Source: a virus (Duplodnaviria > Caudoviricetes). From it: DNA of 64,000 bases. Below are positions 29,185 through 29,285 of this stretch, one piece after another. Position numbers and translations under genes: made by a program. The notes under the pieces are model-generated. The model did not search any database, was not told where the DNA came from, and saw only the letters and a list, made by a program, of their open reading frames with translations. Each line of letters begins with the position of its first letter. Position 1 is the stretch's first letter. The DNA lies in the IMG/VR virus record IMGVR_UViG_3300048691_000224; one strand, written 5' to 3'.

Positions 29185-29285
29185 TAGTCTCTATAGGGCT
29201 CGAACCTATTTCATTACCAAGTCAGCGACGCCTGTTTTCTGACTAATCGAAGGGTAATGGTCTTACCGTGTTAAACGAAGAAACC
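29185..29285 (-). ncRNA. tRNA body with a 27-nt hairpin inserted in the anticodon loop
   Basis: GGTTTCT/AGAGACT; GTTT/AGAC; CATTACC/GGTAATG; ATAGG-TTCGAGC-CCTAT; insert stem AGTCAG/CTGACT. Confidence 0.7.

Follow-up and report, generated by a model that had tools for sequence, protein, structure and literature searches.

The nearest published case to the gene described here comes from the Lak megaphages, whose tRNA genes carry 'enigmatic' introns after position 37 that have no Rfam hit and are highly conserved (Devoto et al. 2019, PMC6784885). Two of these inserts measure 79 and 93 nt, a tRNA may be encoded within one of the Lak introns, and alleles that do not carry the intron exist (PMC6784885). 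Since that work, the insert-bearing tRNAs of large phages have been read as introns, without a mechanism being attached to the reading. In archaeal and eukaryotic tRNA genes the introns are more variable than the exons; the bulge-helix-bulge motif consists of two 3-nt bulges with a 4-bp helix between them, and both splice sites lie inside it. Group I introns are longer than 200 nt and contain a conserved catalytic core. Phage T4 also makes small, stable, tRNA-related RNAs that do not decode, namely RNAs C and D (species 1 and 2), which come from its tRNA region. Finally, in engineered tRNA scaffolds the anticodon arm is swapped for a foreign hairpin, and cellular tRNA enzymes recognise and process the product, which is stable in E. 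coli (Ponchon and Dardel; PMC3753655).

Here we analyse a stretch of 64,000 nucleotides (the window, by which we mean the whole stretch) from a freshwater T4-like phage, which contains a tRNA-shaped gene with a strongly conserved hairpin of 25-27 nt in its anticodon loop. A preliminary description of this gene, made from the letters of the DNA, had proposed either a decoy with a shielded anticodon or a substrate for cut-and-ligate maturation. The comparison of relatives leads us, tentatively, to a changed form of the first proposal.

A tRNA-shaped gene with an enlarged anticodon loop

The gene in the window, which we call type A (Table 1), matches the Rfam tRNA model RF00005 with 38.5 bits (gathering score 29 bits; E 1.2e-6 when a 501-nt region is searched alone, E 3.9e-5 in a 16.5-kb search). 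The match spans the full model (positions 1-71), with a 29-nt run replacing two loop positions. The gene was missed both by a whole-window Rfam gathering scan with speed filters and by default ARAGORN; it is detected only with lax filters or with ARAGORN in intron mode at lowered threshold (-i -ps), which reports a tRNA-Arg(tcg) of 75 nt with a 27-nt intron. This call returns the same sequence as the preliminary description, which had placed a 27-nt hairpin insert after position 37 of a tRNA with the would-be anticodon TCG and had recognised that removal of the insert would leave a tRNA-Arg(UCG)-like molecule. Folding energy does not set the RNA apart (z-score of the full-length RNA, -0.22), so that the evidence for a real gene comes from the covariance-model score and from conservation.

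All pairs of the acceptor, anticodon and T stems are formed. The earlier statement that the four stems are intact holds for these three, while the D stem needs either a 2-nt connector beside its 4 bp (ARAGORN) or one U-C mismatch among its four positions (Rfam alignment). The loop layout given before (CT-TCG-A, hairpin, CTGACT, T) agrees with the sequence, which reads CUUCGAUU, AGUCAG, AAAACAGGCGUCG, CUGACU and U, the single U on the 3' side of the hairpin being at 29219. Because of the repeated U, the 27 nt may be placed as UU-hairpin (37/38, the position found by ARAGORN) or equally well as U-hairpin-U (38/39). The resulting loop has 34 nt in type A, and 32 nt in the type B gene described below, in place of the 7 nt of a decoding anticodon loop. 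No second inverted repeat of this kind occurs in the window beside 29220-29244, and the only match in the window to a complement of the 13-nt loop, as an antisense target, is the locus itself. Three structural candidates were set aside: an H-type pseudoknot between GUCG of the hairpin and the bulge CGAU, rejected on geometry because its strands would have no linker, is a mere alternative fold, and a K-turn and a terminator were rejected by inspection of the insert.

Taking out 27 nt leaves a loop of exactly 7 nt, CUUCGAU, with U33 and A37. This arithmetic is the main attraction of a serious rival explanation, in which an endonuclease recognising the hairpin cuts out U-hairpin-U (27 nt) and a ligase, either a phage enzyme of the PF09414 type or host RtcB, joins the two halves into a decoding tRNA-Arg(UCG) for CGA codons; the hairpin would then be conserved as a recognition element or for a second use after excision. 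Codon usage agrees with such a product. CGA is the commonest Arg codon of the window ORFs (182 codons, 10.6 per 1000), the window has no other decoder of CGN codons, and UNN tRNAs for six four-codon boxes are present (Leu, Thr, Gly, Ser, Ala and Pro), so that adding Arg would leave Val alone missing. We regard splicing of this kind as possible, with a real though minority share of the probability.

The structure of the insert speaks against it. As had been noted, there is no bulge-helix-bulge: none appears among the 25 lowest-energy structures, all within 2.5 kcal/mol of the optimum, and in a fold lying 0.6 kcal/mol above the optimum, where CGAU on the loop side pairs with GUCG in the insert, the bulges measure 2 nt and are out of register. 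With its 27 nt the insert cannot splice itself and cannot hold the group I catalytic core of more than 200 nt with P3-P9; Rfam, searched at the insert with E up to 10, returns no match except tRNA, and thus no Intron_gpI or other ribozyme. Among the 40 window ORFs scanned against Pfam or PHROGs, which cover part of a 64-kb piece of a larger genome, we found no splicing endonuclease, polynucleotide kinase or RtcB.

The identity elements of a tRNA-Arg are likewise divided. In E. coli, A20 in the D loop is a major determinant for ArgRS. A bacterial tRNA-Arg should have C35 with G36 or U36 in its anticodon; that of type A has C35 and G36, that of type B does not comply, and the type A D loop reads G18 G19 U20, so that A20 is missing, as the preliminary description had observed (the Rfam register puts an A at 20a). 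The phage's own tRNA-Arg(UCU), at 26646-26720, reads GGA at these positions and hence has A20. The 3' end of the window gene is A-CAA, and the CCA, also in keeping with the earlier account, is not encoded.

Other tRNA-like genes of the window have peculiarities of their own. The tRNA-Cys(GCA) at 17445-17533 (minus strand, 89 nt, Rfam 53.3 bits) and a second tRNA-Thr(UGU) at 18934-19020 (minus strand, 87 nt, Rfam 47.5 bits) have long, class II-like variable arms, and judging by these arms they could be charged by another synthetase, for example SerRS. An element at 21250-21336 (minus strand) corresponds to positions 5629-5712 of the related contig L001, in a stretch 90% identical between the two; it falls below the Rfam threshold (27.4 bits in L001) and is read by ARAGORN (-ps) as Ser(gct) carrying an insert of 12 nt.

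Table 1. Positions in the window of the tRNA-shaped gene, its parts, and the protein-coding genes mentioned in the text.
Feature	Position	Strand	Remarks
tRNA-shaped RNA gene, type A	29185-29285	-	101 nt; Rfam tRNA and ARAGORN intron mode
Acceptor stem	29279-29285 / 29186-29192	-	type A gene
D arm	29259-29276	-	type A gene
Anticodon stem	29253-29257 / 29214-29218	-	type A gene
5' side of enlarged loop, CUUCGAUU	29245-29252	-	has C32, U33, UCG and A37 of an Arg(UCG) loop
Hairpin in anticodon loop	29220-29244	-	25 nt; 6-bp stem AGUCAG/CUGACU and 13-nt loop AAAACAGGCGUCG
T arm	29193-29209	-	type A gene
Discriminator A	29185	-	type A gene
131-aa gene, phrog_27943	29494-29889	-	constant upstream neighbour; PHROG E 9.3e-50
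63-aa zinc-ribbon-like ORF, phrog_2834	29299-29490	-	PHROG E 1.7e-15; stop 13 nt before the RNA
91-aa ORF	28890-29165	-	begins 19 nt past the RNA, whose 3' trailer holds the AGGAG ribosome-binding site of the ORF
RNA ligase ORF	23255-23896		Pfam RNA_ligase PF09414, E 3.8e-23
PTPS/QueD-like gene	45063-45578	-	
GTP cyclohydrolase I gene	46805-47497	-	
Acb1 anti-CBASS homologue	34157-34636	-	
Non-specific DNA/RNA endonuclease	5977-6657	-	
GatB/YqeY-domain protein	13079-13594	-	

Conservation in relatives and a second scaffold

Five further contigs carry the RNA: L001 (with L003), L085, L086, L087 and L088 (identical to L089). Scans of viral contigs with patterns for the anticodon arm, the T arm, the D arm and two forms of the hairpin gave L001/L003 as the sole relative; a pattern match in L004 was a chance hit with no tRNA around it. 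The other four were found in a large assembly collection through close homologues of the protein encoded by the upstream 131-aa gene, which are 95% (L085), 88% (L086), 80% (L087) and 75-76% (L088) identical to the window protein. Rfam tRNA scores are 40.8 bits for L001, 40.8 for L087 and 32.4 for L088. In L085 the end of the contig cuts the RNA, which is identical to that of the window as far as it runs.

Compared with the window, the type A RNAs of L001, L086 and L087 show 2-3 changes per ~101 nt, whereas the divergence of the adjacent gene at third codon positions is 18%, 23% and 40%, respectively. The four full-length type A sequences vary at four places only, namely the closing pair of the hairpin (A-U or G-U), the purine at position 57, pair 1:72 (G-U or G-C) and an extra A in the variable loop, and the segment CUUCGAUU is unchanged in all of them and in the partial L085. 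Set against flank rates of 10-26%, the 3 changes in the 101 nt of L001 give P between 7e-3 and 3e-10; its anticodon arm with the insert has 1 change in 44 nt (P 0.057 to 2e-5, according to the neutral rate used). Sequence conservation ends at the boundaries of the RNA. Since the insert is common to all relatives and the changes are few, the comparison shows a real gene under purifying selection with the insert present, and not a dead tRNA.

The same figures bear on the idea of a tRNA-Arg gene that was killed by an insertion and is now decaying. Such a history would account for a 34-nt anticodon loop that cannot decode, for the missing A20 and encoded CCA, and for the slightly irregular D arm. 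However, the insert must be older than the split of the relatives that share it, and the few changes, next to 18-40% at third positions next door, are all compatible with the structure, which makes decay extremely unlikely. Random decay in relatives, which the preliminary description had named among the findings that would count against a functional RNA, is thus not what we see. It had also pointed to the value of relatives with and without the insert: five contigs with it were found and none without, neither through exon-only patterns in viral contigs nor among the relatives, where five type A sequences and type B all carry it. The absence of an intron-less allele is a further point against splicing.

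At larger distances the RNA is missing, both from 80 metagenome loci in which the neighbour gene is at most 65% identical and from four Logan relatives at 66-67%; the cultured phages gave no DNA match to it. ARAGORN 'intron' calls in those metagenome loci were mostly unconfirmed by Rfam. A marine contig with the same neighbour gene (L062) has a 125-nt tRNA match at 654-778 (Rfam 33.8 bits), in whose anticodon region ARAGORN places an insert of 44 nt with a sequence that has no relation to the hairpin.

The RNA of L088, which we call type B, occupies the same syntenic place after a neighbour protein of 76% identity, and its Rfam match has 33 nt in the loop. Outside the hairpin, 38 of 77 positions differ from the window and seven pairs are changed on both sides and still paired, whereas within the hairpin 1 of 25 positions differs (a stem U-A to U-G) and the 13-nt loop is identical (Fisher P 1.5e-5). 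Over the five distinct sequences, cloverleaf pairing is present in 96.3% of cells, a value reached by none of 500 shuffles, slid controls giving 34-48%; the four-stem cloverleaf is therefore backed by covariation, with all double-sided pair changes falling on one branch, that of type B.

At third positions of the neighbouring gene, L088 is 39% and L087 40% divergent from the window. L088 is thus no further away than L087 in this gene, so the scaffold has been exchanged or freed of sequence constraint and the hairpin has not. The 21-nt hairpin core is identical in 7 of 7 sequences compared, and the two changes seen in its stem (A-U to G-U and U-A to U-G) both still pair. By this comparison the hairpin is shown to be the most conserved part of the RNA, and the anticodon to be not conserved between the two scaffold types, since type B has CUAGAU in place of CUUCGAUU. 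For splicing this is awkward: if the hairpin alone is taken out of type B, CUAGAUU remains, with U at position 37 and AGA as the anticodon; if U-hairpin-U is taken out, the excision that yields 7 nt in type A, the loop has 5 nt; and we found no register in which a normal cloverleaf of type B would have a canonical loop. The argument is limited mainly by type B being represented by one sequence (L088 and L089 are identical over 2762 nt), so that the constraint on type B itself cannot be gauged. Searching with the neighbour protein of type B returned no further relatives of that type.

The occurrence of the same 25 nt in two scaffolds that are ~50-70% alike, as a perfect 6-bp inverted repeat with a T on each flank, might also be seen as the mark of a selfish or DNA-level element. 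A 25-bp inverted repeat of this kind, whether a mobile mini-insert or a DNA site for a protein, would have hit the anticodon loops of two tRNA genes, and near-identity would reflect recent spread and not RNA function. We find this very unlikely. Each contig has a single copy and the window has no other, the hairpin core occurs in none of 185,579 prokaryote genomes and in just one viral contig, and the syntenic place is constant with no empty site known. Moreover, the two scaffolds are each other's nearest relatives among 48 tRNAs, if slightly (70% against a maximum of 66-67%), and the two stem changes retain pairing through G-U, which is relevant to RNA and not to DNA.

Neighbouring genes and RNA ligases

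In 6 of 6 contigs the RNA lies after the 131-aa gene, directly or past the 63-aa ORF, and 6-13 nt past a stop codon. The 63-aa ORF is optional, being present in the window, L001, L085 and L087 and absent from L086 and L088. Nor is the 91-aa ORF constant on the downstream side, where L088 has a NUDIX gene. In L087 a CCA is encoded right after the discriminator base, a detail in favour of a product that matures into a working tRNA by splicing, and is followed by an intrinsic terminator (864-890) and a 12/12 sigma-70 promoter, so that the RNA closes the transcription unit. In the window, the neighbouring genes are all on the same strand as the RNA, and we found no promoter-like site just upstream of it. 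The RNA is probably co-transcribed with the 131-aa gene, and the same-strand context, the lack of a promoter and the layout of L087 indicate that it is most likely made from the mRNA of that gene and released by tRNA end-processing.

A position between ORFs, close to a stop and a start, with a ribosome-binding site in the trailer and no promoter of its own, would also suit a punctuation mark in the mRNA. In that case the tRNA shape would be no more than a site for RNase P and 3' processing at which the message of the downstream ORF is parted from the ORFs upstream, and the anticodon arm would not matter. This is very improbable given that the anticodon arm with its insert is the most conserved region against L001, that the hairpin is near-identical even in type B, and that the downstream context varies from a terminator with a promoter in L087 to a different gene in L088.

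The RNA ligase gene reported in the preliminary description is real, as its match to PF09414 confirms (Table 1), but its use as an argument for splicing is weak. In the 88%-related L001, a block of ~7 kb with the ligase inside (22.1-28.9 kb; window 22100-28900) is replaced by ~1.2 kb (L001 3946-5133), so that the ligase is missing from its syntenic place while the RNA is nearly unchanged, with the reservation that L001 represents about 12% of a genome and the ligase could sit elsewhere. The same block also carries tRNA-Met(CAU), tRNA-Arg(UCU) and a dozen small ORFs. The ligase has no sequence match in the PDB, and an ORF upstream of it was rejected as a missing N-terminal ligase domain, since such a domain was not seen. 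More favourable to splicing are the distant relatives: in several distant phages a PF09414 ligase gene adjoins the 131-aa gene or is close to it, stop and start touching or overlapping in L091, and of 31 long loci examined by profile search, 5 have ligase-like genes. The recurrence of ligases beside the 131-aa gene thus allows for a link to RNA joining.

The 131-aa protein has an AF2 model with pLDDT 85, belongs to no Pfam family, finds no fold match in the PDB by Foldseek or VIA-align (best Z 2.9), and falls in the Atlas into viral hypothetical clusters only. From its gene neighbourhoods the phrog_27943 protein may be an RNA-handling factor. A protein-only form of splicing is conceivable, in which a phage enzyme, possibly this protein, would cut on both sides of the hairpin and a phage or host ligase would seal the anticodon loop, yielding tRNA-Arg(UCG) and a free 27-nt hairpin RNA; the released hairpin may have a role of its own. 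We consider this version fairly unlikely.

The family phrog_27943 has 846 relatives at E<=1e-30 and recurs near tRNA arrays, YqeY-like genes, tmRNA genes and RNA ligase genes (L012, L091, L094, L095). Two metagenome contigs have a tmRNA gene just upstream of a phrog_27943 homologue (L047 1623-1988, Rfam 124 bits; L024 2015-2397, 97.5 bits), and L023 has, within an array of 11 tRNAs, a tRNA at 1758-1834 (Rfam 53.6 bits) to which ARAGORN assigns a four-base anticodon (ccaa). The window itself encodes PTPS/QueD-like and GTP cyclohydrolase I proteins, whose sequences likely point to 7-deazaguanine synthesis, as well as an Acb1 anti-CBASS homologue, a non-specific DNA/RNA endonuclease and a GatB/YqeY-domain protein.

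The proposed RNA and its place among known systems

Taken as a whole, the data lead us to favour, with caution and at a little less than even confidence, a hairpin RNA on a tRNA scaffold that would act unspliced and would not decode. The observations behind this choice are selection with the insert in place, a hairpin that outlasts its scaffold, the change of anticodon, the lack of A20 and the lack of an insert-free allele. Mechanistically, a small phage RNA on a tRNA frame would be transcribed with the upstream 131-aa gene. Host tRNA end-processing would probably excise it, RNase P acting at the 5' end and 3' trimming and CCA addition completing the other, given the fully tRNA-like form of its acceptor, D and T arms. 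Precise ends and stability would come from the L-shaped body, and the invariant 25-nt hairpin, in place of a working anticodon loop, would be the working part, a putative binding site for a protein or RNA partner. No splicing would take place. An invariant insert, a changeable body and a non-conserved anticodon fit a hairpin as the working part and a tRNA body as its chassis, and by analogy with engineered tRNA scaffolds, which are processed and stable in E. coli, the design should be workable in principle.

Several observations pull the other way. The anticodon-loop context of type A is perfect (C32, U33, UCG, A37) and its 7-nt arithmetic exact; the type A body hardly changes even where synonymous divergence reaches 40%, as in a true tRNA and beyond what a frame would need; CGA is the commonest Arg codon, and a UCG tRNA fits the U34 four-box set. 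Type B could be a different tRNA that gained the same insert, and no partner of the hairpin was found, nor a complement of its loop in the window. Splicing is the better account of the loop arithmetic and of the invariance of the type A body, and a scaffold is the better account of type B and the missing A20.

Of the two readings in the preliminary description, the cut-and-ligate substrate is therefore kept as a rival, upheld by the loop arithmetic and the type A body and weakened by type B, by A20 and by the ligase argument. The non-decoding look-alike is favoured by the comparative data in its general sense, but the hairpin, as the most conserved part, is probably functional in itself and not a shield for the anticodon. 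The RNA is unlikely to serve as a decoy for anticodon nucleases, since the loop read by such enzymes is destroyed by the insert.

The usual pattern is turned round here, in that the insert persists as the tRNA body and the anticodon change. If the explanation that we prefer is right, phages use the tRNA shape as a chassis on which a small functional hairpin is made and stabilised. A hairpin of 25 nt whose 13-nt loop is fixed makes a short, testable object. If the RNA is spliced instead, it points to a protein-based route of tRNA splicing in bacteria and their viruses, of which we know no example. Either outcome would change how oversized phage 'tRNAs' are annotated.

Each of the known systems shares part of this picture. 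As in archaeal and eukaryotic tRNA introns, the insert can be placed at the canonical position 37/38 and a CGAU/GUCG pairing is possible; unlike in those introns, there is no bulge-helix-bulge in register, no endonuclease was seen, the insert is kept more than the exons, and the setting is a phage with T4-like relatives and presumably bacterial hosts. An insert conserved over a changing body is, to our knowledge, the reverse of what protein-spliced tRNA introns display. Insertion into the anticodon loop is shared with the group I introns of bacterial and phage tRNA genes, from which the 27-nt length and the lack of an Intron_gpI match set it apart.

The closest design is that of the engineered tRNA scaffold, which likewise keeps the acceptor, D and T arms and bears a hairpin on the anticodon stem. 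In contrast to the man-made construct, the present RNA is natural, it retains the anticodon stem and half of the loop, and its processing is predicted. If it indeed acts as a scaffolded hairpin, it would resemble T4 RNAs C and D in being a tRNA-related, non-decoding RNA of a T4-type phage; those RNAs, compared here by description, lie at the end of a tRNA cluster and are not complete cloverleaves with an insert in the anticodon loop.

The published case closest to ours is still that of the Lak megaphages. In both, a non-ribozyme insert stands directly after position 37 of a phage tRNA gene and is conserved among relatives, a parallel that also lends some weight to splicing. Unlike the Lak introns, the insert described here is a plain hairpin of 25-27 nt, no empty allele was found among its relatives, and the same hairpin also occurs on a second scaffold in which no canonical loop is possible. 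The RNA is a member of no mechanistic intron family and belongs, together with the Lak genes, to a loosely defined kind of insert-bearing phage tRNA.
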